A stretch of 64,000 nt of DNA from an uncultured Erysipelotrichaceae bacterium (lineage in GTDB: Bacteria; Bacillota_I; Bacilli_A; Erysipelotrichales; Erysipelotrichaceae): NCBI GenBank assembly GCA_949744505.1, contig CATJXY010000018.1, forward strand, positions 1,165-65,164, read 5' to 3'. The notes under the pieces were generated by a model. That model was not told the origin of the DNA. It saw nothing but the letters and a program-made list of their open reading frames with translations, and made no database searches. Both the position numbers and the translations under genes were made by a program. Position 1 is the first letter of the stretch; each line of letters begins with the position of its first letter. Of the stretch, positions 3,517-57,059 are shown one piece after another.

Positions 3517-4623
3517 TTATTTTGATCTAATTACATAAAATCCTTTAAGAATTTCACCCTCTAAATCAGGGTGGTTGTTTTCATCGTACACCCATAAAGC
3601 ACTGATTGGATCATGAGTCTTGTTATATTCTGCAATAAATTCTAAACCTTTTTCTGCCCCCATGATCATAAGCGCAGTAGATAAGATATCACCAACTCCG
3701 CCATCATTGCAAGTAATCGCAACAGAACGAACATCTTTAGCAGGATAATAAGTAGTCGGATCGATAATATGATGATAAATTTCTTGATCTTCTCCTACAT
3801 AATAGCGCTGATAATCTCCGCTTGTTACAATGGTAGATGTGTTAAATGTTTCAAGTATGGTAATTCCGTTTTGATCGCTGGCATCTTCCGGATTTCTGAC
3901 ACCGACTTTCCATGAAGAACCATCAGGCTTACTATGAATAAGCTGAATGTTACTTTCGCCAACGCTAAGTAAAATGGCATAAGGGTAGATTTCCTCTAAA
4001 TAGTCACTGATTTTTTGAGCAGCGAAACCTTTTGCGATACCCCCTACATCAATTGAGATGTTTGGATCGTCAATATAAACAGTCGATGCCTTTTCATCGA
4101 TAATAATATGCTCAAAGCCACGATACTGTGCGGCATTTTCAAGTTCTTCTTGGGTTGGTACTGCTCCTAATTGACCCCCATAATTTTTTAGTAAGCCTTC
4201 TTCTCGATATTCGTGCCAAATATTTAGTAGATTACCGATTGTAATGTCAAATGAGCCATCACTCATTTCTGAATATTCTTTTGCTAATAACAATAATTCG
4301 ATTAATTCTTGATCTACTTCAACAGGATTTATTCCGGCATTGTCATTAATTGTTTTAACATTATTTATATTTTCATAATTGTTATATTTATCAAATAAAA
4401 TTGTATAGTATTTCATTTTTTCACATACTTTTTCAAATAACTCATCTGCCTGACTTTTATCTTCTGCATAAGTTTGCATGACAACCGCTGTATCAAAATA
4501 CTCAGACCCATAAGTTTGATTTGTATATCGAGTCAAGTCTTTTGGTTGATCTAAAGAGGATGGGGGATTTATGGTACATCCTCCACACATAACACATAAT
4601 AAAAATATGATTAACTTTTTCAT
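3517..4623 (-). CDS. apbE: FAD:protein FMN transferase (ApbE/Ftp), lipoprotein
   Basis: Lipobox LLCVMCGGC after MKKLIIF, and an ApbE-type core (DVGGIAKGFAA, TSGDYQRYY). It is divergent from the rnf operon, whose subunits need covalent FMN. Confidence 0.85.
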   Translation of the reverse strand: MKKLIIFLLCVMCGGCTINPPSSLDQPKDLTRYTNQTYGSEYFDTAVVMQTYAEDKSQADELFEKVCEKMKYYTILFDKYNNYENINNVKTINDNAGINPVEVDQELIELLLLAKEYSEMSDGSFDITIGNLLNIWHEYREEGLLKNYGGQLGAVPTQEELENAAQYRGFEHIIIDEKASTVYIDDPNISIDVGGIAKGFAAQKISDYLEEIYPYAILLSVGESNIQLIHSKPDGSSWKVGVRNPEDASDQNGITILETFNTSTIVTSGDYQRYYVGEDQEIYHHIIDPTTYYPAKDVRSVAITCNDGGVGDILSTALMIMGAEKGLEFIAEYNKTHDPISALWVYDENNHPDLEGEILKGFYVIRSK

Positions 4624-4752
4624 AAGGGGAACTTTCCTTTCTTTGTTAAATTCTTCATGATCACAAAATGAATCTTATTCATTATAGCATGAACCTAATG
4701 AAAAGAGATATAAATCATTTATTAAGTTGTTTTTTTCACAAATTATTTTTTG

Positions 4753-4781
4753 TTGGAATGTGAGATAAAGCATGTTATAAT
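4753..4781 (+). promoter_or_regulatory. candidate sigma-A promoter of the rnf operon
   Basis: TTGGAA (4753-4758), a 17-bp spacer, and an extended -10 TGtTATAAT (4773-4781). Confidence 0.5.
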
Positions 4782-4886
4782 TACAACGTATTGTGAATAA
4801 TTGCCCAAATTTCAAGAAAAAGTGGCTATTATTCAGTTTTTATGCGTTATCAAGCATAGGGAAAATCAGAAAGGAAAGGGTAAATT

Positions 4887-6179
4887 ATGTCATTATTAAC
4901 AGGACCGATGCGCAAGCATGTTAACGGTCATAAAGAATTGACAGATCATGTCGATGTTAAAAAAATCGATGCCGGAAATTTGGTTTATATTCCTTTGGTA
5001 AATGGTAATGCGGTTGCAGGTGAAGTACTTGTCAACGAAGGCGATAAAGTTAAAGTAGGTACTGTTGTTGCCAGACGTAAGGATAATTTTATTGTTCCTT
5101 TATTTTCATCTGTTTCCGGTACTGTTAAGGGAAAAGAAACTTTCATGCATGCTGGATTAAAGCCGGTAGAGCATTTGGTTATCGAAAACGATGGTTTATA
5201 TGAAACGGAGCAAGCTTTTGAACCGATTGATTATACAACCGCAACAAGAGAAGAATTATGCGATTATATGATGAATGCTGGAATTGTAGGTTGTGGTGGA
5301 GCCGGATTCCCGAGCTATGTAAAGTATAAATTTGCTAAAGATGTTAAACTCTTGATTATCAATGCAGTAGAGTGTGAACCGTATATTACTGCTGATTACA
5401 AGTATGTTTCAGAGTACAAAGAAGATATGCTTCGTGGTGTTAAGGCAATGTTGAAGATGTGTGAAGCACCGGAGGCCGTTATTTGTATTAAAGAAACAAA
5501 AAAGGCATTCATTGAAGAAATGAATCAGTTCTTAAAAGATGAAAAAAATGTTAATGTCAAAGAAGTTCCGGATGTTTATCCAATGGGATGGGAAAGAACA
5601 TTGGTTTATGAAGTTACAAAGAAAAGATATGACCGTCTTCCGGGAGAAGTAGGTGTTGTTGTAAATAATGCAACAACAGCAATTGCTTTTGGTCAAGCAC
5701 TTGTAACAGGTAGAGGAATCACAGAAAAGTTTGTCACAGTTTCCGGTGATGCTATTAAGGAACCATGTACTGTTCGTGTTCCGGTAGGTGTAAGAACTTG
5801 TGATATTATTGCTGCATGCGGAGGATATACAAAAGAAGATGTTCTTTTGATTGCCGGAGGACCGATGATGGGAAGAACTATTCCTAATGATCAGTTTGTT
5901 ATCACTCCGTACAGTAATGCATTGACAGTTTTGGAAAATGTCCCGGTAAAAGAAGTTGCTTGTCTTCGCTGTGGACGTTGTTCAGATCACTGTCCGGCAG
6001 GATTACAACCGGTTCGTATTAACAATGCTGAAAAAGCAAAGAATATGGAATTGATTGAAAAATTGAACGTTATGGATTGTATTGAATGTGGTATGTGTAC
6101 ATATATTTGTCCTTCAAAGATTGCCGTAACGGAAGGTGTAAGAAGAGCAAAACGTGCTATGGCTCTTAAAAAGAAATAG
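4887..6179 (+). CDS. rnfC: Rnf electron transport complex subunit C
   Basis: GCGGAGFPS nucleotide-binding motif and two 4Fe-4S motifs (CLRCGRCSDHCP, CIECGMCTYICP). It is the first gene of an rnfCDGEAB-order cluster. Confidence 0.92.
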   Translation: MSLLTGPMRKHVNGHKELTDHVDVKKIDAGNLVYIPLVNGNAVAGEVLVNEGDKVKVGTVVARRKDNFIVPLFSSVSGTVKGKETFMHAGLKPVEHLVIENDGLYETEQAFEPIDYTTATREELCDYMMNAGIVGCGGAGFPSYVKYKFAKDVKLLIINAVECEPYITADYKYVSEYKEDMLRGVKAMLKMCEAPEAVICIKETKKAFIEEMNQFLKDEKNVNVKEVPDVYPMGWERTLVYEVTKKRYDRLPGEVGVVVNNATTAIAFGQALVTGRGITEKFVTVSGDAIKEPCTVRVPVGVRTCDIIAACGGYTKEDVLLIAGGPMMGRTIPNDQFVITPYSNALTVLENVPVKEVACLRCGRCSDHCPAGLQPVRINNAEKAKNMELIEKLNVMDCIECGMCTYICPSKIAVTEGVRRAKRAMALKKK

Positions 6180-6196
6180 GAAAGGGGAGAATTGAG

Positions 6197-7630
6197 ATGA
6201 AATTTACTTTTAAACCATCCCCAAACTATCGTAATGAGCAAAGTACAAGCTCTATTATGATGGAATTAACGATTGGGTTGTTAGTTATCTTTGCAGCAGG
6301 TTGTTTGATTAATTTGAAAATTAACGGAACAACTGCGTTGCTTCATTGTATTTTTGCTTTATTGGTTTGTCTTATTGCAACAGTAGGAACAGAAATTATT
6401 TGGTGTGTTGTATTAAAAAAAGACGTTGTAGAGCATTTATTTAGTTCATATCCATGGGTGACCGGAATTATTATTGCTTTGACAGTTCGTCCGAATGTAA
6501 GCTATTTTGCTTTAGCAGTTGCTTCTGTAATGGCAATTTATTTCGGTAAATTGGTTTTTGGTGGATTTGGACAAAATATTTTTAATCCTGCTGGCGTAGG
6601 TCGTGCAATTATTGCAATCAGTTTCGGTTCAGCGGTTGTCGCAGATGTCGTTTCTGGAGCAACTCCAACATCAACAATTTCAAGTTATGGATGGTTGATG
6701 AATGGTGCTAATGCTTCTGCATTCTTAAATGATTTCGGTGGTTTAACAAATATGGCACTTGGTTTATATCAAGGTGCTATTGGTGAAACATGTTCTGTTT
6801 TGCTTATTGTTGTTGGAATCGTTTTGGCATGGCGTAAGGTTATTGATTGGAAAGTTCCTACAATTTATGTATCTACAGTTTTTGTTCTTTCTTTGTTAGT
6901 AGGTTTGATGAATGGACAAGGATTGTGGTATCCGTTGTTTAGTGTTTTGACAGGTGGTGTTTTATTCGGGGCTGTCTTTATGTTGACTGATCCGGTTACA
7001 AATCCAACCAGTTCTTCAGGACGTGTCATTTTTGCGATGGGAGCAGGTTTATTAACCGTTCTTATTCGTGTAAAGGCAAGTTTGCCTGAGGGTGTATTAT
7101 TCTCAATTCTGTTGATGAATATGTTGACACCGGCTATCGAAAAATGGTGTGATGGAAATCAGATCAAAAATATTAAAAAGCTTCAAAGAAACGTAGTTAT
7201 TACAGCAATTATTTGTTTGGTTGTGGGAGCAATTGCCGGATTCTCTATGAAAGCATCTGATGCAAATTATGTAAATGTCAATACAAAGATTATTGTTGAT
7301 GCAAGCTATGGTGAAAATGCGTTGGCAAATGTAGATACATCTAACGTCAAGGTAATCAGCGAAGAAAATGGAACTTTCACTCTTGCAAGCAAGGGATTTG
7401 ATGGTGAAAATGAATTTAAGATTACTGTAGAAAATGGTGCAATTACAAGTTTTGAAGTAACAGCATTCAATGATACTCCGGGTATCGGTGATGCCATTAC
7501 ACAAGAAAGTTTTACAAGTAAGTTCAATGGGGCAACATTAGGATCTGAAATTGATGTTTGTGCCGGAGCAACGTATTCAAGTAATTCAGCTTTAGCTGCC
7601 GCAAGTGCTGCTTTAGCATCAGGTAACTAG
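6197..7630 (+). CDS. rnfD: Rnf subunit D fused to an extra TM helix and a C-terminal FMN-binding (RnfG-like) domain
   Basis: The NqrB/RnfD core carries the flavinylation motif SGATPTS (6653-6673). After ...LTPAIEKW comes the TM helix NVVITAIICLVVGAIAGF, then a roughly 115-aa module ending DVCAGATYSS (7553-7582). Total length is 477 aa. Confidence 0.88.
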   Translation: MKFTFKPSPNYRNEQSTSSIMMELTIGLLVIFAAGCLINLKINGTTALLHCIFALLVCLIATVGTEIIWCVVLKKDVVEHLFSSYPWVTGIIIALTVRPNVSYFALAVASVMAIYFGKLVFGGFGQNIFNPAGVGRAIIAISFGSAVVADVVSGATPTSTISSYGWLMNGANASAFLNDFGGLTNMALGLYQGAIGETCSVLLIVVGIVLAWRKVIDWKVPTIYVSTVFVLSLLVGLMNGQGLWYPLFSVLTGGVLFGAVFMLTDPVTNPTSSSGRVIFAMGAGLLTVLIRVKASLPEGVLFSILLMNMLTPAIEKWCDGNQIKNIKKLQRNVVITAIICLVVGAIAGFSMKASDANYVNVNTKIIVDASYGENALANVDTSNVKVISEENGTFTLASKGFDGENEFKITVENGAITSFEVTAFNDTPGIGDAITQESFTSKFNGATLGSEIDVCAGATYSSNSALAAASAALASGN

Positions 7631-7640
7631 GAGGAAAGAT

Positions 7641-8930
7641 ATGAATAAAATAGTTAAATTAGCAATTTTCCTCGGTATAGTTTCTGCAATTGCCGGTGGA
7701 GCTTTGGCAGCTGTTAATAATGTGACAGCTCCAATTATTGAAAAGAAAAAAGCTGCTGCAAGTCAGGGTGCTTTATTGGAAATCTTCCCAGATGCAACTT
7801 TTACAGAAGTTGAATTTAAGGATGAATCAGGGATCATTTTAGCTGTTCATCGTGCTGAGAATAAAGGGTATATATTCGAAATGAAGAATGCCGGATATAA
7901 TACCGGATCGCCACTTGAATTTATGCTTGGTATTGATGACAATGGCAATTATGTCGGTTATAAAGTTATTGTAAATGAAGAGACAAATGGGTTAGGATCA
8001 CGAGTTTCTGATGATGAATTTAAAAATACAATTGTTGGAAAAACAATTGATGATGAAATTGATACATTGTCAGGCGCTACATTATCAAGTCGCGCAATTA
8101 TAAACGGAATCAATGCTGCTAAAACAGTTTACGGTGATTTGGCAGGGGTTGAAGTAGAAGTGAAAGAACCAGAAGTAAAAGTAGCTCAGATTAGTTTATC
8201 TGAGGATTATTCAAGTAACAATGCTGTTGTTGAAAATTCAGAAGAAGTGGATGGAAATACAGTTTATACTGTTTCAGCAAAAGGATTTGAAGGTGTGAAT
8301 GTATTTGAAATCACAGTAAATGGTAATGGTGAAATTGTAAAAGTTGCCAATATAGAATTTAAGGATACTGTTGGAGTAGGTGATATTGCTATTGCTGAAG
8401 ATTACCTTGCTTCGTTTAACAATGCAACATTGGATTCTACATTGGATGCATGTGCAGGTGCTACTTATACAAGTAAATCCATAGCGGCTGCCGTTCAAGC
8501 TGTTTTAAGTGGTAATGGTGAAAGTGAACCTTTAGATGAAGAAGAAAATTCAAGTGAAGAGTCTTCTGAAGAGGAAACGCCAGTAGCAAATGAGGGGCCT
8601 AAGTTTGTTATTAATGATGACTATTCAGGTTGCAATGCAACGGTTGAAGGGTCTGAACAAACAGAAAATGGAACAGTTTACACAGTTTCTTCTTATGGAT
8701 TCCATGGAACAAGTATTTTCGAAGTAACTGTAAATGAAAATAAAGAAATTGTCAGTGTTGTTTGTACTGAATTCAATGATACAGAGGGTATTGGTGATTC
8801 TGCTACAACAGAAGATTATCTTGCTAAGTATGTAGGAGCTACAATGGAATCTTCTATTGATGTAAGCGCCGGAGCTACTTACACAGGTAAATCCGTAGCT
8901 GCTGCAGTACAGGCTGCATTGGAACAGTAG
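7641..8930 (+). CDS. rnfG: Rnf subunit G with three FMN-binding modules
   Basis: N-terminal TM anchor, a canonical RnfG domain with DTLSGATLSS (8061-8090), and two further modules with DACAGATYTS (8445-8474) and DVSAGATYTG (8859-8888). The last two modules are separated by an acidic Ser/Glu linker. Confidence 0.88.
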   Translation: MNKIVKLAIFLGIVSAIAGGALAAVNNVTAPIIEKKKAAASQGALLEIFPDATFTEVEFKDESGIILAVHRAENKGYIFEMKNAGYNTGSPLEFMLGIDDNGNYVGYKVIVNEETNGLGSRVSDDEFKNTIVGKTIDDEIDTLSGATLSSRAIINGINAAKTVYGDLAGVEVEVKEPEVKVAQISLSEDYSSNNAVVENSEEVDGNTVYTVSAKGFEGVNVFEITVNGNGEIVKVANIEFKDTVGVGDIAIAEDYLASFNNATLDSTLDACAGATYTSKSIAAAVQAVLSGNGESEPLDEEENSSEESSEEETPVANEGPKFVINDDYSGCNATVEGSEQTENGTVYTVSSYGFHGTSIFEVTVNENKEIVSVVCTEFNDTEGIGDSATTEDYLAKYVGATMESSIDVSAGATYTGKSVAAAVQAALEQ

Positions 8931-8943
8931 GAGGAATCTGAAG

Positions 8944-9594
8944 ATGAATAGAAAAGAAAACTTTTTTGCTGGATTTATAAGAGAAAATCCTGTATTTGGA
9001 TTGTATTTGGGACTTTGTTCAACTTTGGCAATTACAACGTCTTTGAATAATGCAATTGGTATGGGACTTAGTGTTATTGTTGTTTTGACTGCATCAAATA
9101 TTATTATTTCTGCAATCAGAAAAATTACACCGGATGAGATTCGTATCCCGGTTTATATCGTTGTTATTGCAACTTTAGTAAAGATTACCGGAATGTTGCT
9201 TCAAGCTTATTTTGATAGCATTTATTCTGCAATCGGTGTTTATATTGATTTGATTGTTGTTAATTGTATTATTTTGGGTCGTGCTGAAGCTTTTGCTTCA
9301 AAAAATGGAATTTTTGATTCTGCTTTAGATGGAATTGGAATGGGACTTGGGTATACTTTAGCTTTGATTGTTATGTCTGTAATCAGACAGATTTTAGGAT
9401 CAGGTATCTTGTCTTTTGCAAATCCAATGACAAATGAAATGATTTTCTCTTTGAGAATTATTCCTGAATCATTTACAATTTCAATGTTTACGACTCCGAC
9501 AGGCGGATTCTTGACATTCGCAGTTTTGGCTGCCGCCTTGACAGTTTACAAAAACTCAAAAGCTGCAAAATTGCAGAAAAAGGAGGCTAAATAA
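8944..9594 (+). CDS. rnfE: Rnf subunit E
   Basis: NqrD/RnfE-type polytopic protein (NPVFGLYLGLCSTLA..., NCIILGRAEAF) in the expected operon position. Confidence 0.9.
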   Translation: MNRKENFFAGFIRENPVFGLYLGLCSTLAITTSLNNAIGMGLSVIVVLTASNIIISAIRKITPDEIRIPVYIVVIATLVKITGMLLQAYFDSIYSAIGVYIDLIVVNCIILGRAEAFASKNGIFDSALDGIGMGLGYTLALIVMSVIRQILGSGILSFANPMTNEMIFSLRIIPESFTISMFTTPTGGFLTFAVLAAALTVYKNSKAAKLQKKEAK

Positions 9595-10172
9595 TGTTAG
9601 GAAATTTATTTTCGCTGTTTTTGACAGCATGTATCATTGATAACATCATTTTGTCAAAATTCTTTGGTATGTGTCCTTTCTTAGGAGTATCCAAGAAAGT
9701 CAGCTCTGCTGTAGGAATGGGTCTTGCTGTTATCTTTGTTATCGTTGGAGCTTCAATTCTAACTTATGGATTATATTATTTGGTTCTTGTACCACTTGAA
9801 TTAGAGTACATGGACTTGATTACATTCATTCTTGTTATTGCGGCATTTGTTCAATTTGTTGAAATGTTTATCAAGAAAAATTCTCCAAGTTTGTATAAAT
9901 CATTGGGAATCTATCTTCCTTTGATTACAACAAACTGTGCAGTTCTTTATGTAGCACAACAAAATATTGCGAACGGATATAATTTTGCTGAGATGCTTGT
10001 TTACTCAGTAGCGGTACCGGCAGGATTTACATTAACACTTTGCATTATGGCAACAATTCGTGAACGTTTGGAATTTGCAAATACACCAGAAAGTTATAAA
10101 GGAAATCCAATCACATTGGTTGTAGCTGCACTTATGGCTATTGCCTTTACGGGATTGGCTGGACTTGTATAA
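9594..10172 (+). CDS. rnfA: Rnf subunit A
   Basis: NqrE/RnfA-type protein (NIILSKFFGMCPFLGVS, ITTNCAVL). Its ATG overlaps the rnfE stop. Confidence 0.9.
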   Translation: MLGNLFSLFLTACIIDNIILSKFFGMCPFLGVSKKVSSAVGMGLAVIFVIVGASILTYGLYYLVLVPLELEYMDLITFILVIAAFVQFVEMFIKKNSPSLYKSLGIYLPLITTNCAVLYVAQQNIANGYNFAEMLVYSVAVPAGFTLTLCIMATIRERLEFANTPESYKGNPITLVVAALMAIAFTGLAGLV

Positions 10173-10173
10173 A

Positions 10174-10362
10174 ATGAAAGAATTAGCACCTTTTCTATAT
10201 ATAGTCGGTTTAGGTTGTTTATATGGAGTAGGATATTATTTGAACCATAAAACACCTGTGCCGAAAGGTTGCGAGAATTTAAAAGCGGATTGTGAAGGCT
10301 GCAAGATTACTTCTTGCGAGAATCATCCGATTTATGATTTATCTAAAGGAGAAAAAATATGA
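10174..10362 (+). CDS. small membrane protein with a Cys-rich tail, unassigned (candidate Rnf accessory subunit)
   Basis: The ATG is 1 nt after the rnfA stop, and the stop overlaps the rnfB ATG (ATGA). It has one TM helix (FLYIVGLGCLYGVGYYL) followed by CENLKADCEGCKITSC (CX6CX2CX4C). The longer ORF-track start at 10141 overlaps rnfA and was not used. Confidence 0.55.
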   Translation: MKELAPFLYIVGLGCLYGVGYYLNHKTPVPKGCENLKADCEGCKITSCENHPIYDLSKGEKI

Positions 10363-10634
10363 TTAATGCAATAATTATGATGTTAGTCGTCGGTGCACTT
10401 CTTGGAGCTGTGTTGGGAATTGCCGGTAAAGTGTTTTACGTTGAGGCAGATACACGTGTTGAAACAGTTACAGGAATGCTTCCTGGTTATAACTGTGGTG
10501 GTTGTGGTTTTGCCGGATGTTCAGGTATGGCAGAAGCTTTAGTTAATGGAGAGTCTACTGTCGATCAATGTAAACCTTCAAAACCTGAGGCTAAAGAAGC
10601 AATTAAACAGTTTTTGACTGAAAATGCTAAATAA
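10359..10634 (+). CDS. rnfB: minimal RnfB (TM anchor plus N-terminal Fe-S domain only; no ferredoxin-like domains)
   Basis: A TM helix followed by LPGYNCGGCGFAGCSGMAEAL...QCKP, the conserved RnfB N-terminal cluster motif. The ORF stops at 91 aa and a clean terminator follows. Confidence 0.8.
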   Translation: MINAIIMMLVVGALLGAVLGIAGKVFYVEADTRVETVTGMLPGYNCGGCGFAGCSGMAEALVNGESTVDQCKPSKPEAKEAIKQFLTENAK

Positions 10635-10663
10635 GAAAAACTCAAGTGTAAACTTGAGTTTTT
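10635..10663 (+). terminator. intrinsic terminator ending the rnf operon
   Basis: Stem CTCAAGT/ACTTGAG with loop GTAA, followed by TTTTTT. Confidence 0.8.
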
Positions 10664-10718
10664 TATATGAAAACAAGGATGGATATGATAAAATAAAAGT
10701 AATAAAAAGGAGTTTATT

Positions 10719-11669
10719 ATGAGTAAAAGAAGAATTATTTTTGATTGTGATCCGGGTCATGATGATGTTGTTGCTATATTATTGGCTCTTGCCAGCGAAG
10801 AAATGGAGATAGTTGGAATTGTTACGAGTGCAGGAAATCAAACTATTGAAAAGACAACAACGAATACATTAAAACTTTTGAGTTATTTGAACATAACATC
10901 GATTCCTGTTGTAAAAGGATTGGGCAAGCCGTTATGTCAGCCACTTGTTTGTTCTCCGGAAGTTCATGGAGAAACTGGTTTGGATGGAGCTGATCTAGGG
11001 GAAATCAAATTTAAGCCTCTTGAAAAGAATCCGATCGAATTTATGTATCAAACAATTATGTGTTCTGAAGAAAAAACAACATTGATTGTTACCGGTCCTA
11101 TGACGAATACGGCTGCTTTGTTGATTGCTCATCCGGATGTGAAAGAAAAAATTGATTGTATTTCTTTTATGGGAGGAGCTTGTTTTGGTGGTAATACAAC
11201 ACCGCTTTCTGAGTTTAATATCTATGTAGATCCTGAAGCTGCAAAGATTGTATTTAAAAGTGGAGTTGATTTATTCATGAGTGGCTTAGATGTCACAATG
11301 AAAGCTCGTCTTTTAAAAAAGGATATTAATGCGATCCGTGCTTTAAATAATGGGATTGGACCAATCTTAGCTGATTTGTTGGATTTCTTTAATCTTTCAA
11401 CAACAGTTAATTTCTTAAATGATGATCCAAATTATGAAGAGGGAGTCCATATGCATGATCCTTGTGCAGTAGCACTGTTACTTCACCCGGAAAAATTTGT
11501 CACAAGAAAACTATATGGTGATGTTGAAACAAGTGGGGAATACAGTCGAGGTTGCACAGTAATTGATTATGATGGAATATATGGCCGTGAAAAAAACGTG
11601 ACAGTAGCATTTGATTTAGATCGTGAATGGTTTGCTCAATATGTTATTGATTCAGTGGGAAAACTATAA
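10719..11669 (+). CDS. ribonucleoside hydrolase (IUNH family)
   Basis: N-terminal DCDPGHDD aspartate cluster typical of inosine-uridine-preferring nucleoside hydrolases. Length is 316 aa. Confidence 0.85.
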   Translation: MSKRRIIFDCDPGHDDVVAILLALASEEMEIVGIVTSAGNQTIEKTTTNTLKLLSYLNITSIPVVKGLGKPLCQPLVCSPEVHGETGLDGADLGEIKFKPLEKNPIEFMYQTIMCSEEKTTLIVTGPMTNTAALLIAHPDVKEKIDCISFMGGACFGGNTTPLSEFNIYVDPEAAKIVFKSGVDLFMSGLDVTMKARLLKKDINAIRALNNGIGPILADLLDFFNLSTTVNFLNDDPNYEEGVHMHDPCAVALLLHPEKFVTRKLYGDVETSGEYSRGCTVIDYDGIYGREKNVTVAFDLDREWFAQYVIDSVGKL

Positions 11670-11699
11670 AAGATGCGTTGTTTGATCAACGCATCTTTT
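11669..11699. terminator. hairpin between convergent genes; overlaps the rqcH 3' end
   Basis: Stem AGATGCGTTG/CAACGCATCT followed by TTTTC on the + strand. Confidence 0.6.
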
Positions 11700-13347
11700 C
11701 TGTCTTTTCTTCTAAATAATCCAAAATTGTTTCATCCGGATCGATATAAATCGTTTTATAAGAATTCATTGTTACAAACCCACTTTTTGCTCCGGGAACT
11801 TTTTTTAAATTTTTAATAGGGCAGTAGTTAATTGGAACGCTGCTAGACATTCTTCCTTTGGAATAAAGTGCAGCGATGTTTGCTGCCAAGCGGATCGTTT
11901 CCTCATCTAAATCATTCCCGGAAACAACAACATGAGCTCCATGATAATCTTTGGCATGGAACCACATATCTTGTTTTGAAGATAATTTAAAAGTGACCTG
12001 ATCATTTTGTAAGTTATTTTTTCCCCAAATAATATTGAGTCCGTTATCCAAAGTAAGCGAATTGACCTTAATTGCATCCGGTTTTTTCTTTCTTCGTATT
12101 TTAGAATATTGTGGCTTCATATATCCGTTCGTGACAAGTTCTTCACGAATTTCTTTGGCATCTGTGAAGTCTGCCAATTCGAGTTGTTGCTCGAGAGCTT
12201 CAAAATAAGTGATTTCATTCTCACAAATTTCAATTTGTTTTAAAATATGTTCTTGTCCTTTTTTTCCTTTGTTGTATTTTTGGAAAGCCTTTTTTGCGTT
12301 TTGTTTCCCATCTAACTTTGGGTCAAGAGGAATCGATATTTCATTTTCACCATCAAAAGAGGTGCATTTAAACTCTTTCGTTCCTTTTTCGATTTGATAG
12401 CTATATGCATATAAAAGATCGCCATATTCTCGCCATTTTTCACAATCCAATGCTTCATCTAAAGCTTCTTTTAATTTGATTATTTTATTTCGATTATGTT
12501 TAAGTTGTTTGCGAACGAATTTGAATAAATCACCCGTCTGTTGTTTGATTCGATCTTTTTCTTCTTTGTGATAATACAAGACATCTAATCCTTCATGAAT
12601 TCCGTATTCTTTATAATTTGTTTCAAATTGATAGAGAGGAATACAATGAAATTGAACTTCTTGATTGACATTACATAAATAAAGTTTAGTAGAATGCTTG
12701 ATTTCATCCATGATTTCACTAAAACTTTGATTATGCTTCATGCGATAATCAATTTCTTTGGATAGAAGAGGGGAAAATCCTTCAAATTGCTGATGAAGAG
12801 GAACATTTGGGTCGATTTCATCAGTGATAAATGGATTTTTCTTTCCTTCTTGGCTTTCTGCCGGTTTAAATTGAGCTCCGCTTAAAATTGTACGTCTATT
12901 GTTTTCAAAAGGAGGAATTCGTTTCAAAGCATCTAATATTTTGTTGTTTTCATCTACTAGAATCACATTTGCATATTTTCCCATGAGTTCAATATAAACT
13001 TTACGAAAAACTTTATCTCCAATTTCGTTTCGTAAGTTGACAGTCATAACACAATAGCGATCTAAACCTTCTTGCTTAAGTTCGGTAATAATTCCTCCTT
13101 CAAGATGTTTCCTAAGCAACATGATAAAATGTCCCGGATCTTCGGGAGTAGGATAACTTCTTTGAGTTATATTCAAGCGATTATATAAAGAATGACATGA
13201 AATCATTAAATTTTGTTTTTTTCCTTGAGAACGCAATTGAAATAAAATCTCTGTATTTGAAATTGCATAAACTTTATTAATTTTTGCCGGAATAAAATCT
13301 TGTAATTCGCATACGATCTTACTTAGCAAAATACCATCTAATGCCAT
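11686..13347 (-). CDS. rqcH: ribosome quality control protein RqcH (NFACT / FbpA family)
   Basis: MALDGILLSKIV... NFACT-N start, a central coiled coil, and a C-terminal NFACT-R region (WFHAKDYHGAHVVV). Length is 553 aa. Confidence 0.85.
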   Translation of the reverse strand: MALDGILLSKIVCELQDFIPAKINKVYAISNTEILFQLRSQGKKQNLMISCHSLYNRLNITQRSYPTPEDPGHFIMLLRKHLEGGIITELKQEGLDRYCVMTVNLRNEIGDKVFRKVYIELMGKYANVILVDENNKILDALKRIPPFENNRRTILSGAQFKPAESQEGKKNPFITDEIDPNVPLHQQFEGFSPLLSKEIDYRMKHNQSFSEIMDEIKHSTKLYLCNVNQEVQFHCIPLYQFETNYKEYGIHEGLDVLYYHKEEKDRIKQQTGDLFKFVRKQLKHNRNKIIKLKEALDEALDCEKWREYGDLLYAYSYQIEKGTKEFKCTSFDGENEISIPLDPKLDGKQNAKKAFQKYNKGKKGQEHILKQIEICENEITYFEALEQQLELADFTDAKEIREELVTNGYMKPQYSKIRRKKKPDAIKVNSLTLDNGLNIIWGKNNLQNDQVTFKLSSKQDMWFHAKDYHGAHVVVSGNDLDEETIRLAANIAALYSKGRMSSSVPINYCPIKNLKKVPGAKSGFVTMNSYKTIYIDPDETILDYLEEKTEKMR

Positions 13348-13427
13348 AAAACCACCTCATTTTTATTATATCATAATTGACAACGACTTTCATTAAATGT
13401 ATGATAGTAAAAACGGAGGATGCGGTA

Positions 13428-13988
13428 ATGAAGAAGGGGTTATTAATAGTTTTAAGCGGTCCTAGTGGAGTAGGAAAAGGAACAGTATTGAAAGAGTTTA
13501 TTCAAGATTCTGAATTAAATTTAAGTTATTCTGTTTCTATGACAACACGTTCACAAAGGCCGGGAGAGATTGAGGGAGTAAATTATTATTTTGTAGACCG
13601 TGAACGTTTTGCACAGGCTATTGAAAATGGAGAATTATTAGAGTATGCAGAATTTGTCGGTAATTTTTATGGCACACCATTAAAAGAAGTGGAAAGACTT
13701 CGTAATCAAGGTAAAAATGTTTTGCTGGAAATTGAAGTAGAAGGGTGTAAACAAGTGTGTGAGAAATGTCCGGATGCTATTACCATTTTTATTGTACCGC
13801 CTTCAATGGAAGAATTGGAAAGAAGAATACGGGGAAGAAAGACAGAACCGGAAGAAATTGTTCAGCGCCGTTTAAGTAAAGCTGAAAAAGAAATGAATTT
13901 GATTGGAAATTATAAATATATTGTATGTAATGAAGATCCAAAGCTTGCCGGAGAAATCTGTTCATTGGTAATTAAACGAAATATGTAG
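13428..13988 (+). CDS. gmk: guanylate kinase
   Basis: P-loop LSGPSGVGKGT and TTRSQRPGEIEGVNYYFV. I chose the ATG at 13428 after ACGGAGGA over the TTG at 13377. Confidence 0.92.
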   Translation: MKKGLLIVLSGPSGVGKGTVLKEFIQDSELNLSYSVSMTTRSQRPGEIEGVNYYFVDRERFAQAIENGELLEYAEFVGNFYGTPLKEVERLRNQGKNVLLEIEVEGCKQVCEKCPDAITIFIVPPSMEELERRIRGRKTEPEEIVQRRLSKAEKEMNLIGNYKYIVCNEDPKLAGEICSLVIKRNM

Positions 13989-23961: not shown

Positions 23962-24728
23962 AAAAATATTGTACAATTTCAAGAAATGATGAATTTTCAA
24001 AAGAAATAGAAAAAAATATTCAACTAAGAATGGAAAAGGAAAGATGGGTTTTTGATAAAGAAACTCCGGATTTTATTTTTGTGATTGGAGGAGATGGGAC
24101 TTTTTTACATGCGGTTCATAGTTATTTAGATAAGCTTTCTGAACTTTGTTTCATCGGCATTCATACCGGAACTTTAGGCTTTTTTACGGATTATCAAAGT
24201 GATGAATTGGAGCAATTTTATAATGATATATTTTACAAAAATCCAACTATTCAAGAATATAGAATGTTAAAGTGCCAACTTTCAGATAAGATAATGTATG
24301 GTTTAAATGAAGTGAGAGTGGAGAATGTTCATAAGACACAATTAATTGATGTCTATATAAATAAATCTAAATTAGAAAGATTTAGAGGAACAGGACTATG
24401 TGTTTGTACACAATTAGGATCCACTGCATATAATCGTTCTTTAAATGGAGCAGTTATACAGAATGAGTTGGAACTTTTAGAGTTATGTGAAATAACGGGG
24501 ATTCATCATCGAGAATATCGTTCATTAGGATCAGCTTTGATTTTACATCCGGAGACAGAAATTATTTTTCATTCTTCTAATTATGAGGGAGCGGTACTTT
24601 GTTGGGATCAGTATTCACTAGATTTAAGGGAAGAAAATGAAGTCAAGATTCAATTGTCGAATAAAAAAGTGAAAATCGCACGGTATCGACCATACGATTA
24701 TATTAATCATTTGAAAAATTTGTTTTAA
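23958..24728 (+). CDS. nadK: NAD kinase
   Basis: GGDGTFLH, the NE..V motif, and GSTAYNRSLNG. Confidence 0.9.
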   Translation: MKKYCTISRNDEFSKEIEKNIQLRMEKERWVFDKETPDFIFVIGGDGTFLHAVHSYLDKLSELCFIGIHTGTLGFFTDYQSDELEQFYNDIFYKNPTIQEYRMLKCQLSDKIMYGLNEVRVENVHKTQLIDVYINKSKLERFRGTGLCVCTQLGSTAYNRSLNGAVIQNELELLELCEITGIHHREYRSLGSALILHPETEIIFHSSNYEGAVLCWDQYSLDLREENEVKIQLSNKKVKIARYRPYDYINHLKNLF

Positions 24729-26140
24729 GAGTTATGTTTATTAATGGAACGTCTTAAAAATAATCTGGAACAAGCAGTTTTATCAAATGGAAAAAGTGGA
24801 TAGAGATAGCATCTGTGGTTTAATGTTTTGGTCGTAAATAACATGACTAATATTAGGATCAATCCCAAAAGAAATCCCCAGATATTGAGAATTCCGGTAA
24901 GAATTAATAGCATAATTCTAAAGAATTTAAATGCATAACCCAATTCAATACTTGGTTGAGTAAATGTTGTAATAGCAACAAAACTCATATATAAAACGAC
25001 TTGTGGAACAAATAAGCTTGCTTTTACGGCAAAATCTCCTAAAATAATAGCTCCTAAGATACTGAATGAATTGCTTAAAGCACTGGGTGTGTTTAAAGAT
25101 GCTAATTTTAATCCATCGACAACAAATTCAATGATGAGAAGTTGTAGTAAAATTGGAATAGGTCCATATGTTTCGGGAAGTAGGAAGGTTAAAGAGTTTG
25201 GTAACAGATCGGGATTTTTGACAAAAAGATACCATAGAGGTGTCAAAAATAAAGTTAACACAAAAATAACTAAACGAATCATCCTTAAATAAGTCCCTAA
25301 TAATGGAGGAAAATAAAAGTCGTTGGTTTCCTGCAGAAAATCAAAAAAACTTGTGGGCAAAATCATGACTGAAGGGGAATTGTCGATAAGGATGGCAATA
25401 CTTCCTTCAACGATACTTGCGGTGGTACTATCTGGTCTTTCGCTATAACGAATCCTTGGTAGAGGATTGTATAATTGTTTTGAAAGAAGACATTCTGCAA
25501 GGCTTTCTTGTGACATTGTCAGGTTGTCAATTGTCATTTTGTTTAATTTATTTCTTAATTCTTTTAAAAATGCGGTGTCTACTTTTTCTTTCATATAACA
25601 AAGCACAACATCTGAACAAGATTGTTTTCCTACTTGATGATATTCCATTGTTAGAGATGGATCTCGCAATCTTCTTCTTATCAGAGCTGTATTAAAAATA
25701 AGAGTTTCATTAAATCCATCATGAGATCCTCTTAATACTCGGTCATCATCCGGTTCCTCTATACCTCTTGTCGGATACTCGCGAATGTCTAAAAATATCA
25801 TTGCATTGTATCCTTCAATCAAAAGTCCTAGAGCTCCGCTCAAAATTGTAGTGATACTTTGATCAAAATCTTTTTCTACATTAGATTCAATATAGGGAAC
25901 ACGTGCTTGAATAAATTCATAGGGGTCTTTCCACTCAACAAAGTCTTTTTCTTTTGTGTTGATGAAAAACTCTAATATTTTTTCCATAACTTCATCTTTA
26001 CAAAGTCCATCTACAAAATAGTAACTGGCTTGATGATTTCCGATTAATAAATTTCGTTCGATTATATCAAAATTTTGATCGATTTGAAGTGAATCATGAA
26101 TCATTTTTTTATTTTCTTTATAGGAATCTGTTAATTGCAT
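24725..26140 (-). CDS. spore germination protein, GerA-family A subunit / SpoVAF-like
   Basis: 471 aa with the pattern RYSERPDSTTASIVEGSIAILIDNSPSVMILPTSFFDFLQ, followed by C-terminal TM helices. No GerB- or GerC-type genes are adjacent. Confidence 0.8.
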   Translation of the reverse strand: MQLTDSYKENKKMIHDSLQIDQNFDIIERNLLIGNHQASYYFVDGLCKDEVMEKILEFFINTKEKDFVEWKDPYEFIQARVPYIESNVEKDFDQSITTILSGALGLLIEGYNAMIFLDIREYPTRGIEEPDDDRVLRGSHDGFNETLIFNTALIRRRLRDPSLTMEYHQVGKQSCSDVVLCYMKEKVDTAFLKELRNKLNKMTIDNLTMSQESLAECLLSKQLYNPLPRIRYSERPDSTTASIVEGSIAILIDNSPSVMILPTSFFDFLQETNDFYFPPLLGTYLRMIRLVIFVLTLFLTPLWYLFVKNPDLLPNSLTFLLPETYGPIPILLQLLIIEFVVDGLKLASLNTPSALSNSFSILGAIILGDFAVKASLFVPQVVLYMSFVAITTFTQPSIELGYAFKFFRIMLLILTGILNIWGFLLGLILILVMLFTTKTLNHRCYLYPLFPFDKTACSRLFLRRSINKHNS

Positions 26141-54763: not shown

Positions 54764-55771
54764 GTGAAAAATCATGATATTGTTTTATGGAGAGATGAGG
54801 GAGAAGTAAGGTCGATTTGTTTATATTTGTTTTCATACTCAGCGAGCGATATAGAGAGTATCGTTTATGAATTGCAAGAACAACTTCAGTGTGAAGTAAA
54901 TTATGAAAATGAGCTTAAAATTGATTCAAAGTTTATCTATTTATTTAACGTATTGGGATGTACGGAAAATTTGAATTGGATTCAATTGAAAAGTAATGAG
55001 GAAAAACTTTCTCAAGATGATTTGTATATTTTAAAAAAAGTAGAGCAATATCTTATTTTGAAAGAGAAAAAGAGAGTTTTGGTAGATGTTCCTATATGGG
55101 ATAGGATGCTGAAAGAATTTCTTTTTGAGGAATTTTATGAGATAAAAGATAAGAAAATACTAGATTTTGGATGTGGTGAAGGATATCTTGCGGGATTTCT
55201 TTCTCAATCAAATCAGGTTGTTGCAATGGATCCAAATATTGAAAAATTAAAGGGAACGTATGATTCCCGTAATTTGAAATTTATTCAGGGTGATGAAAGT
55301 ATCTTGGAAACTTTAGATGAAAAATTTGATTTGATAATATGTCATAATGTTCTGGAATATGTGGCAAATCAAAAAAAGACAGTTCAATGTCTTGCGAAAC
55401 ATTTAAAAAAGGATGGAAGAATATCAATCATTAAACATAATCGTCCTGGTAGAGTCATGCAAATGGCGGTTTTATTGAATAACTTTGGTCATGCTAATGA
55501 ATTGTTGGATGGAAAAAATTCAAATGCTCAGCAGTTTGGCACAATTCAGTATTATGAAGATGAAAGTTTAATTCACTGGGTAGATTCGTTATCTATAGCT
55601 CGTACAAGAGGATTTAGAGCTTTTTATGATTTACAACAAAATCAAACATGCCATTCTGAAGAAAATTGGCAAAAACAAATGTTAAATTTAGAAAAAAGAG
55701 TTATGGAAATAGAACCGTATCGTTCCATTTCATTTTTTCATATTTTAGATCTTGAATTTAAAGATCAATAA
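54764..55771 (+). CDS. class I SAM-dependent methyltransferase with an unknown N-terminal domain
   Basis: SAM motif I ILDFGCGEGYL and an acidic motif II DLIICHNVLEY. Confidence 0.7.
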   Translation: MKNHDIVLWRDEGEVRSICLYLFSYSASDIESIVYELQEQLQCEVNYENELKIDSKFIYLFNVLGCTENLNWIQLKSNEEKLSQDDLYILKKVEQYLILKEKKRVLVDVPIWDRMLKEFLFEEFYEIKDKKILDFGCGEGYLAGFLSQSNQVVAMDPNIEKLKGTYDSRNLKFIQGDESILETLDEKFDLIICHNVLEYVANQKKTVQCLAKHLKKDGRISIIKHNRPGRVMQMAVLLNNFGHANELLDGKNSNAQQFGTIQYYEDESLIHWVDSLSIARTRGFRAFYDLQQNQTCHSEENWQKQMLNLEKRVMEIEPYRSISFFHILDLEFKDQ

Positions 55772-55787
55772 AAAATTGGAGGAAATT

Positions 55788-57059
55788 ATGAAGAAATATT
55801 TACTTATTCTTTTTGTACTATGTATATTGATGTATGGCTGTAAATTTGATAGGAAAACAGAACAAAGTAGCGAGGAACATGTTCAGTCAAGTATGCAACA
55901 AACCGAGAATACAATGCCTGTTTATTCTTTATTGACATCCTATGATGATATTTATAATAGCTATACAAAAGAAGCGATTGATCTGTATGATCAAGTTTAT
56001 GATACAAACTACAGTGAGGAAAAAATTCTTTCATTTGCCGGAAGAGAAATACCGGAGGTATCGTTAACTGATATCAATGGGAATCGAGTAAATGTTGCTG
56101 ATTTAAAGAATAAGAGAGTAATTTATGAGTTTGCTGCTTCTTATTGCAGTCATTGTAAAAATGTATCTAAAGAAGTAATGGAAGAAATCATGAATGAAAA
56201 CGAAGATGTAATATTTATTCAGATTTTTATCAATGGTGATAGTGAAAGTGTTCGTGAATTTTACGAAGATATCAATAAAGAGATTCCAGATGAATTAATA
56301 GTTGTGCCAAGAGAAAGCCAGGTTATTACATTAGTGGAAGGATTGGGACTTGAATATCTTCCTAGCTTAGTTTTTCAGGATGAATTTGGAAAAGTGAGCT
56401 GGTTTCATCAGGGAGATACGACAGTAAATGAAATGAGAAAAGCTATTGAATGCGCTTTTGGTCCAAAGAAGATTTATGAAATGATAAAAGACGGAATATC
56501 ATCACAGAATGACTTCATTCTCACTTATAAGGATGTAAAAGCACATTTTGAAGAAGAAACGATTTCATTAATTGAAGATGTTTTTCATGGAGAAGAGATT
56601 GATTTCTATGGGAATTTAGGAAATTCATTTTATATGGATACGATTAAGACTTTAAATAAAGAAAAAATTGAAACGAGTTATTTCATAAATAAGAAGACGG
56701 TATATATCATTGTTTTTGCAGATGAAGAAAAGGAAAAACAGACTAAAGATATTGAAAATTATAAGCGTCTTTGTGAAAAGTATACTGATACTGAATTTGT
56801 ATTCGTGTTTAAGAGTACGGATACACAAGATATTTTTGAATATTACAGCCAAGTTAAAGACAAAATTAAAATTGCATACGATAAGAACGATTCTACTAGT
56901 TTAAATGATATTTATATTTCATCTGTGCCTCTTTATTTATTTGTAGATGAGAATAATAGAATTTGTGGAACATGGGTTAATTCGGGTGATTTTGAAGAAT
57001 TTGATAAAGCATATCAGTTGTTTTACTCAGATGTTCCGCTTTATGAAAGAATAAAATAG
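55788..57059 (+). CDS. lipoprotein with tandem thioredoxin-like (TlpA/ResA-type) domains
   Basis: Lipobox LMYGC and the active site CSHC (56145-56156). The second half has Trx-fold-like spacing but no CxxC. Confidence 0.65.
   Translation: MKKYLLILFVLCILMYGCKFDRKTEQSSEEHVQSSMQQTENTMPVYSLLTSYDDIYNSYTKEAIDLYDQVYDTNYSEEKILSFAGREIPEVSLTDINGNRVNVADLKNKRVIYEFAASYCSHCKNVSKEVMEEIMNENEDVIFIQIFINGDSESVREFYEDINKEIPDELIVVPRESQVITLVEGLGLEYLPSLVFQDEFGKVSWFHQGDTTVNEMRKAIECAFGPKKIYEMIKDGISSQNDFILTYKDVKAHFEEETISLIEDVFHGEEIDFYGNLGNSFYMDTIKTLNKEKIETSYFINKKTVYIIVFADEEKEKQTKDIENYKRLCEKYTDTEFVFVFKSTDTQDIFEYYSQVKDKIKIAYDKNDSTSLNDIYISSVPLYLFVDENNRICGTWVNSGDFEEFDKAYQLFYSDVPLYERIK

Follow-up and report, generated by a model that had tools for sequence, protein, structure and literature searches.

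How does an Rnf complex take up electrons when its RnfB subunit lacks the domain that should receive them from ferredoxin, and where do electrons go when its membrane subunits carry additional flavin modules? Both questions are raised by an rnf locus (positions 3517-10634) in a stretch of 64,000 nucleotides (nt) from an uncultured Erysipelotrichaceae bacterium (assembly GCA_949744505.1, contig CATJXY010000018.1, positions 1,165 to 65,164 of the forward strand), which was analysed at its full length and is referred to as the window. In the accepted model, the entry point of ferredoxin into Rnf is RnfB, at its poly-cluster C-terminal domain. With slightly better than even confidence, we read the locus as an Rnf typical of Erysipelotrichaceae that has three ports: an intact core electron loop, an entry module of a minimal RnfB (mini-RnfB) and a small Cys-containing membrane protein (orf62), and an extracytoplasmic flavin side-branch. 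All six Rnf subunits (C, D, G, E, A and B) are encoded together in the window. The list of open reading frames (ORFs) reproduced exactly the gene order of the initial annotation of this DNA, with apbE on the opposite strand followed by rnfC-D-G-E-A-orf62-B, and Pfam and NCBIfam searches confirmed each assignment:

3517-4623, (-) strand: apbE, flavin adenine dinucleotide:protein flavin mononucleotide (FMN) transferase (Pfam PF02424, 2e-63), divergent from rnfC
4753-4781, (+) strand: promoter-like site TTGGAA-17-TATAAT with TG extension in the apbE-rnfC intergenic region, from a consensus scan only
4887-6179, (+) strand: rnfC, canonical subunit binding reduced nicotinamide adenine dinucleotide (NADH) and FMN, with two [4Fe-4S] motifs
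6197-7630, (+) strand: rnfD fusion, 477 amino acids (aa), RnfD core plus extra transmembrane (TM) helix plus FMN_bind module
7641-8930, (+) strand: rnfG, 429 aa, N-terminal membrane anchor plus three FMN_bind modules
8944-9594, (+) strand: rnfE, assigned by Pfam and NCBIfam
9594-10172, (+) strand: rnfA, assigned by Pfam and NCBIfam
10174-10362, (+) strand: orf62, small membrane protein with one TM helix and conserved Cys
10359-10634, (+) strand: mini-rnfB, 91 aa, TM helix plus single-[4Fe-4S] PF04060 domain
10636-10663, no strand: 12-bp hairpin between A and T runs, directly 3' of rnfB

The description of RnfB as pared down to 91 aa held. Its sole Pfam domain is PF04060 (residues 41-73, 1e-14), it covers positions 5-89 of the 190-position rnfB model, and the chain ends at residue 91 with no ferredoxin-like C-terminal domain, no CxxCxxCxxxC motif and no Fer4 match. 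Residues 1-76 can be aligned to the N-terminal part of three solved RnfB chains (7ZC6_B, 9ERI_B and 8AHX_B), with Cys 46, 49, 54 and 71 falling on the N-terminal cluster domain in each. According to a 2025 review (PMC12174285), the RnfB N-terminus comprises a TM helix and a flexible domain with one cluster, which carries electrons to the [2Fe-2S] cluster of RnfA/E, and the C-terminal domain contains 2-7 [4Fe-4S] clusters and accepts ferredoxin. An RnfB without C-terminal clusters falls outside the range described there, and our literature search found no papers on truncated or short RnfB or on strains without RnfB. A truncation artefact was ruled out, as hundreds of clusters keep both the length and the Cys: the family comprises 468 homologous clusters, of which the 120 listed all measure 83-106 aa with PF04060 only, and the four Cys are conserved in 64 homologues. 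The listed proteins carry the annotation '(Fe-S)-binding protein' or 'electron transporter RnfB'. Among the mini-RnfB proteins, about half have a length of approximately 102 aa (e.g. locus L048, 13084-13392; locus L027, 14255-14563) and end in a conserved tail, T-P-G-P-D-G-x-x-x-x-V-K, often with extra Cys (C-K-P-C-K); the window protein has neither this tail nor the extra Cys.

To place the locus among its relatives, we used a profile scan of species genomes that gave 80 loci, annotated with hidden Markov models (HMMs) built from the window proteins. The order rnfC-D-G-E-A-orf62-mini-rnfB was found in 65 complete operons, with apbE adjacent in 46 of them, and the number of FMN_bind modules in these 65 operons ranged from 1 to 6:

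1 module: 12 operons
2 modules: 14 operons
3 modules: 26 operons
4 modules: 10 operons
5 modules: 1 operon
6 modules: 2 operons

RnfD carries 0-3 of these modules, RnfG 1-5, and RnfE has one in Dielma and Traorella; the window arrangement, with one module on RnfD and three on RnfG, is common to three operons. The fused RnfD of the window has more than 100 close relatives of 450-770 aa, almost all with PF03116 plus PF04205, and the named ones belong to Erysipelotrichaceae (e.g. Anaerorhabdus, Traorella); the best match in species genomes (51% identity) comes from a Holdemania metagenome-assembled genome (MAG). In 12 of the 65 operons, e.g. in Holdemanella, Faecalicoccus and Merdibacter, RnfD and RnfG are canonical, at about 380 aa and about 170 aa respectively; mini-RnfB and orf62 are present in these 12 as well. 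As judged from this co-occurrence, the mini-RnfB/orf62 pair is a clade-wide feature separate from the flavin expansion; the reduction of RnfB is therefore no adaptation that goes with that expansion. The initial annotation had regarded the reduced RnfB and the extended flavin arm as parts of one design and looked to the joint occurrence of RnfD fusion, multi-module RnfG and mini-RnfB; the independence of mini-RnfB from the expansion across the survey contradicts this.

Whether the path on the RnfB side is still in use can be judged from the ligands of the intramembrane cluster. RnfE C25 and C108 align with NqrD C29 and C112 and with the Cys of solved RnfE, and RnfA C27 and C115 align with NqrE C26 and C120 and with the Cys of solved RnfA. 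The NqrD and NqrE positions were read off the alignments and agree with the ligand residues of the literature. In Rnf, the four RnfA/E Cys hold the intramembrane [2Fe-2S] cluster (PMC12174285). They are retained (CC/CC) in every Erysipelotrichaceae-type operon in which both subunits could be scored. Six Clostridia operons of the survey lack rnfB, namely those of Proteiniclasticum (L014, with the operon at about 8600-13700, L019, L021 and L025), a Clostridiaceae MAG (L017) and Youngiibacter (L016). Like the window locus they encode an RnfD-FMN_bind fusion (RnfD about 43% identical) and a multi-module RnfG, here with two modules; RnfC is intact, the operons end after rnfA, and no rnfB, orf62 or apbE was found within 10 kb. 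In precisely these six operons, all four RnfA/E Cys are replaced (GS/TS or SS/TT; RnfA G/S and S, RnfE T and S/T). Gene content and ligand loss give them the appearance of an Rnf derivative that truly carries electrons one way only, from NADH to extracytoplasmic flavin. Decay of the ligands where the B-side path has been abandoned, set against retention of the RnfA/E, RnfB and orf62 Cys in the window clade, argues that the path is in use in the latter, and the ferredoxin arm accordingly looks minimised rather than disabled.

These data bear directly on the strong version of the initial annotation, an explanation in which nothing but a vestige of the ferredoxin arm is left and the complex acts solely as a one-way oxidoreductase from NADH to extracytoplasmic flavin that replaces ferredoxin:NAD+ coupling. 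Such a complex would explain an RnfB without ferredoxin-like domain and the absence of a ferredoxin gene from the operon and the 64-kb window, where ferredoxin-type Cys motifs occur only in RnfC, and a variant of this kind does exist in Proteiniclasticum and Youngiibacter. However, that variant lost rnfB together with all four RnfA/E Cys, whereas the 65 operons of the window clade keep the Cys of RnfA/E, mini-RnfB and orf62, and mini-RnfB and orf62 also accompany fully canonical RnfD and RnfG. We therefore consider a vestigial ferredoxin arm very unlikely. The initial annotation had left open whether a path between NADH and an extracytoplasmic flavin wire would replace ferredoxin:NAD+ coupling or add to it: addition is plausible and has already been published as a hypothesis for multi-flavinylated RnfG, and replacement is unlikely given the retained Cys.

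The second component of the putative entry module is orf62. The mechanical ORF comprises 73 aa from TTG 10141, and homologues and database entries favour 62 aa from ATG 10174. The protein consists of one TM helix followed by the motif N-x-K-T-P-x-P-x-G-C-E-x5-C-x2-C-x4-C. Its ATG lies 1 nt past the rnfA stop, its stop codon overlaps the rnfB ATG (ATGA), and the Shine-Dalgarno sequence of rnfB (AAAGGAG) sits within orf62; judged from this arrangement, orf62 and rnfB are translationally coupled. An exhaustive profile search yielded 237 representative clusters, nearly all of 45-95 aa, and the last three Cys are kept in every aligned member (62 distinct sequences). In the survey, orf62 was located between rnfA and mini-rnfB in 65 of 65 complete operons. 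Among five distant members, three again lie between rnfA and a mini-rnfB, here encoding 99-121 aa, and a fourth directly follows rnfA on a contig that ends at the orf62 gene. A chance ORF was ruled out by the conservation of Cys and position across the 62 sequences, and by the same conservation orf62 is a real gene tied to Rnf. The fifth distant member (P0285; L087, 1601-1807) lacks the first Cys and is situated between genes for aspartyl-tRNA synthetase and a deaminase-like protein on a 1973-bp contig without rnf genes; it is a stray relative, unless the match is due to chance. Three proteins from outside the window also matched the profile. The top match, P0143 (2325 aa, 24 matched stretches), is a large Cys-rich repeat protein that probably matches only through its Cys spacing, and P0163 (85 aa) and P0171 (126 aa) have orf62-type C-termini after unrelated N-terminal sequence and are probably assembly or gene-calling chimeras, not real fusions.

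What orf62 does was approached by comparison with known families. It matched no Pfam or NCBIfam family (E<=10) and nothing in the PDB by sequence or predicted fold. Databases list it as 'hypothetical protein', apart from one UniRef entry named FeoB-associated Cys-rich membrane protein; the family of that name (PF12669) matched 1 of 22 orf62 members (E=0.029) and not the window protein, in a scan where HMMER filters drop most matches above about 0.1. The C-x2-C-x4-C core has the same spacing as the RnfB motif. An hhalign comparison with mini-RnfB gave a probability of 83%, which is weak, partly driven by the TM helix, and a hint, not evidence of homology. Because orf62 tracks the truncated RnfB, is coupled to rnfB and shares this Cys spacing, we give about even chances to its being a stoichiometric partner of mini-RnfB that replaces the docking domain and perhaps bears a cluster.

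By analogy with the nqr systems, orf62 could instead be a maturation factor similar to NqrM, a possibility that we regard as somewhat doubtful. NqrM is reportedly a single TM helix with conserved Cys, a description that also fits orf62, whose tail is moreover unstructured when modelled alone. Both are small membrane proteins encoded beside the structural genes and apbE, and NqrM is an Fe-S (iron-sulfur) maturation protein linked to the intramembrane Fe-S centre (PMC12174285). In its full form, this explanation makes orf62 an assembly factor for the [2Fe-2S] or the RnfB cluster, and ferredoxin input would rely on a poly-ferredoxin or second RnfB encoded elsewhere or on soluble ferredoxin alone; as a whole we find it unlikely. 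In the same filtered scan, none of 22 orf62 family members matched the NqrM Pfam family (PF04400/DUF539, E<=10). Unlike NqrM, orf62 is encoded within the operon, shows translational coupling to rnfB and is tied to truncated RnfB: every orf62 seen with a complete downstream gene adjoins a mini-RnfB, never a full-length RnfB, and a correlation with RnfB length is not what one would expect of a general maturation factor. We therefore favour the subunit reading of orf62 over the maturation reading.

The extended flavin arm of the initial annotation was borne out, including its 477-aa RnfD with an extra TM helix and FMN_bind module and its 429-aa RnfG with three such modules. In RnfD, Pfam, hydropathy, AlphaFold and Foldseek agree. 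The core (aa 1-321) matches PF03116 (NQR2_RnfD_RnfE, residues 5-321, 2e-74) and, by Foldseek, solved RnfD and NqrB chains (9ERI_D, TM-score, i.e. template modelling score, 0.80 on target). The C-terminal module (aa 391-477, nt 7367-7627) matches FMN_bind PF04205 (residues 400-473, 5e-11) and domain 1 of CbFMN4 (CbFMN4-D1, 8P2B, TM-score 0.71-0.79), the crystal structure of a covalently flavinylated domain. Between them, hydropathy places the extra helix at residues 328-354 and AlphaFold at 326-349 (nt 7172-7243), and the AlphaFold model (mean predicted local distance difference test, pLDDT, 71.6) shows this helix, a disordered linker and then a beta/alpha FMN_bind fold. The extra helix should place the C-terminal module outside the membrane. 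RnfG contains three FMN_bind stretches (Pfam, 1e-33), with an acidic Ser/Glu-rich linker ahead of the third; thus all the extra modules score as FMN_bind. Their coordinates in RnfG were taken from a purpose-built HMM:

G1, aa 76-165: canonical module, DTLSGAT, T147
G2, aa 206-292: extra module, DACAGAT, T275
G3, aa 344-429: extra module, DVSAGAT, T413

The window thus encodes four FMN_bind modules plus the RnfD core site, next to an adjoining apbE. The five candidate flavinylation sites proposed from the sequence are all present as D-x-x-x-G-A-T: T156 in DVVSGAT (RnfD core, nt 6644-6664) and T459 in DVCAGAT (RnfD module, nt 7553-7573), in addition to the three RnfG sites above. D150, T156 and P157 of RnfD are invariant in 15 homologues. 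G2, G3 and the RnfD module share 50-59% mutual identity, and their identity to G1 is 22-28%; by these values they are a distinct subtype, duplicated and shuffled among RnfD, RnfG and RnfE. RnfE has become the third Rnf subunit to have gained a flavin module, in proteins of 353-369 aa from Dielma fastidiosa (L027, 12384-13484) and Traorella (L040, 1796-2905; L072, 12303-13364). The survey maximum for RnfG, five FMN_bind modules in 740-749 aa, was found in L026 (11485-13734, labelled Solobacterium sp.) and L038 (1792-4014, uncultured Erysipelotrichaceae).

Neither the window nor the 10-kb flanks of the related loci contained acceptor genes. Erysipelotrichaceae such as Holdemania encode tens of secreted flavin reductases for anaerobic respiration (Little et al., bioRxiv 10.1101/2022.12.26.521950), a study that makes no mention of Rnf, ApbE or a defined electron-transport component. 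The per-genome table of that study was compared with our module counts:

Holdemania: 35-51 secreted flavin reductases; 1, 3 and 0 modules on RnfD, RnfG and RnfE
Dielma: 13-26 secreted flavin reductases; 2, 1 and 1 modules
Bulleidia/Solobacterium: mostly 2-11 secreted flavin reductases; up to 1, 5 and 0 modules
Anaerorhabdus: 3 secreted flavin reductases; 1, 2 and 0 modules
Holdemanella: 0 secreted flavin reductases; canonical 0, 1 and 0 modules
Faecalicoccus: 0 secreted flavin reductases; canonical 0, 1 and 0 modules

At genus level and uncorrected for phylogeny, this association of module expansion with secreted flavin reductases is suggestive. C-19, UBA636 and several digester 'Erysipelothrix' MAGs have extra modules and zero listed secreted reductases; flavin reductases are therefore not the sole acceptors, and other acceptors or functions must exist. 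Such lineages, and the lack of any acceptor gene linked to the operon, would fit an explanation in which the extra modules store or buffer electrons locally for the RnfG/RnfD station, or scavenge O2 or other oxidants at the cell surface. Consistent with this, SaFMN3 in its reduced state reacts with O2, and one potential is common to all three of its flavins (PMC10339131). Against it, module number tracks the reductase-rich genera, the long flexible acidic linkers suggest reach, not storage, and the interpretation published for multi-flavinylated Rnf (PMC8238504) favours transfer to acceptors. We consider buffering or scavenging quite unlikely.

From gene content, domains, motifs, conservation and co-occurrence we infer as follows which cofactors are bound, which way electrons move, how ion transport is coupled, what orf62 does and which acceptors serve the three-port Rnf. 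The core loop, presumably intact, would link RnfC (NADH, FMN, two [4Fe-4S]) to RnfD (riboflavin, covalent FMN at T156), RnfD to the FMN at RnfG T147, this FMN to the intramembrane [2Fe-2S] of RnfA/E, and that cluster to the [4Fe-4S] of RnfB, with Na+ or H+ translocation coupled as in canonical Rnf. In the entry module, RnfB retains only a membrane helix and a flexible one-cluster shuttle, and its translation is coupled to that of orf62, which as stoichiometric partner would be the docking or cluster-bearing stand-in for the poly-ferredoxin domain, and soluble ferredoxin or flavodoxin would reduce the shuttle domain directly. In the side-branch, ApbE would flavinylate RnfD T459 and RnfG T275 and T413 on flexible linkers outside the membrane, and these modules would draw electrons from the RnfG/RnfD FMN station towards acceptors outside the cytoplasm; where a lineage has secreted flavin reductases, these are the most plausible acceptors.

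Several observations weigh against this three-port reading. On the entry side, the first Cys of orf62 is lost in a few family members, topology predicted from flanking charges is ambiguous, the AlphaFold monomer shows only the TM helix with an unstructured Cys tail (pLDDT 55-61) and no fold match, and a poly-ferredoxin or second RnfB may be encoded elsewhere in the genome. On the flavin side, the canonical sites RnfD T156 and RnfG T147 fit the strict ApbE motif D-x-x-[S/T]-G-A-[S/T] (PMC12052999), and T459, T275 and T413 have Ala at its fourth position. These three do fit the looser DxxxGAT motif used for experimentally flavinylated multi-FMN proteins (PMC10339131), and in favour of the side-branch, a three-FMN protein was fully flavinylated there with a midpoint potential (Em) of -184 mV (Tong et al. 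2023). Furthermore, the survey loci were fetched with a fused-RnfD profile, so that fusions are over-represented, and both the genus-level nature of the reductase comparison and the expanded lineages without listed reductases count on the same side.

Compared with canonical Rnf from Clostridium tetanomorphum (7ZC6), Acetobacterium woodii (9ERI) and Azotobacter vinelandii (8AHX), the window system has the same six subunits in the order rnfCDGEAB, with the cofactor motifs in RnfC, the flavinylation sites in RnfD and RnfG, the four Cys in RnfA/E and, in RnfB, the N-terminal helix and [4Fe-4S] domain. It differs by the absence of the 2-7-cluster C-terminal domain of RnfB (PMC12174285), by orf62 between rnfA and rnfB, and by three additional FMN_bind modules on RnfD and RnfG. 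Rnf clusters with multi-flavinylated RnfG and a proposed second path to extracytosolic acceptors are described by Méheust et al. 2021 (eLife, PMC8238504), and multi-flavinylated proteins are modelled as beads on a string by Huang et al. 2024 (PMC11334425). By the definition of Méheust et al., the window locus belongs to this class, being an ApbE-associated Rnf cluster whose RnfG has more than one FMN_bind domain. Rnf with additional FMN modules outside the cytoplasm is hence an already published class and hypothesis, which the initial annotation rediscovered. Within the available text, neither paper mentions FMN_bind fused to RnfD or RnfE, mini-RnfB or orf62, and measured against that text FMN_bind on RnfD and RnfE extends the published class. 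The clade-wide pairing of mini-RnfB with Cys-rich orf62, and its contrast with the RnfB-less, Cys-less Clostridia, looks undescribed.

Two further systems are related more distantly. The NQR/RNF-like two-subunit systems (Méheust et al. 2021; Huang et al. 2024) are likewise Rnf/Nqr-derived and proposed to work one-way from NAD(P)H to extracytosolic FMN; they have an RnfD-like membrane domain fused to an NqrF-type NAD-binding domain (PF00175) and are without the RnfD flavinylation site, RnfC, RnfA, RnfE and RnfB. In contrast, the window has no PF00175 match, and T156, RnfC, RnfA, RnfE and RnfB are all present. Flavin-based extracellular electron transfer (EET) in Listeria (Light et al. 2018; FmnB/ApbE, PplA, Ndh2, EetAB) also uses ApbE-type flavinylated extracytoplasmic FMN_bind domains, and modules of this kind on a Gram-positive surface can feed secreted flavin reductases. 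There, electrons enter through Ndh2 and quinone and PplA is a separate lipoprotein, whereas the window modules are fused to Rnf subunits, and the 64-kb window contains no FMN_bind ORF beyond RnfD and RnfG and no Listeria-type EET locus. A paper on EET, Rnf and flavinylation (PMC13134045) was dropped as a precedent, since it concerns NosR, not Rnf flavin arms.

RnfC scored 355 bits against TIGR01945 (cutoff 246), matched Pfam Complex1_51K, RnfC_N, SLBB and Fer4, and carries the [4Fe-4S] motifs CLRCGRCSDHCP and CIECGMCTYICP. Together with rnfC, rnfE, rnfA and rnfB exceeded their NCBIfam (TIGR) cutoffs, and rnfD (202.7, cutoff 207) and rnfG (81.7, cutoff 102) scored slightly below theirs because of the fusions. 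The ApbE N-terminus has a hydrophobic or lipoprotein-type signal (residues 4-22, hydropathy). The number of promoter-like sites in the apbE-rnfC spacer was not above the shuffled expectation, which makes the listed site weak evidence, and the hairpin after rnfB looks like a bidirectional intrinsic terminator at the operon end. Based on the promoter-like site, the tight orf62 junctions and this hairpin, rnfCDGEA-orf62-rnfB is one unit. No Rfam RNA or riboswitch match was found around the locus (E<=0.1). The flanking genes and all large window ORFs that were scanned are housekeeping genes. A His-rich YmaF-family protein (2101-2484, (+) strand) and a DUF2383 protein (2509-2955, (-) strand) are encoded upstream, with no link to Rnf seen. 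Elsewhere in the window, a 435-aa ORF (55752-57059, (+) strand) matched no Pfam family at E<=1e-8, and a GerA-family spore germination protein is encoded at 24725-26140 ((-) strand), so that the source organism is probably a spore-former.

Altogether, a whole family runs on a one-cluster RnfB and an unannotated mini-protein, which raises the question of how ferredoxin or another donor couples to Rnf; orf62 points to a possible extra Rnf subunit or assembly factor, and the RnfB-less, Cys-less Clostridia variant serves as a natural control, showing what Rnf looks like once it runs truly one-way. As a concrete and testable candidate, the variable flavin arms could supply electrons to the dozens of secreted reductases in gut Erysipelotrichaceae. 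A more far-reaching proposal, which we hold to be doubtful at present, is that Erysipelotrichaceae perform a quinone-independent 'Rnf respiration', in which mini-RnfB and an Fe-S-binding orf62 would take electrons from ferredoxin, the [2Fe-2S] step would pump ions and the FMN modules of RnfD, RnfG and RnfE would feed secreted reductases. If true, this would name the electron-transport link missing from the reductase study of Little et al. and make orf62 a seventh Rnf subunit, and gut Holdemania and Dielma would respire dietary and host metabolites via Rnf-fed secreted reductases.

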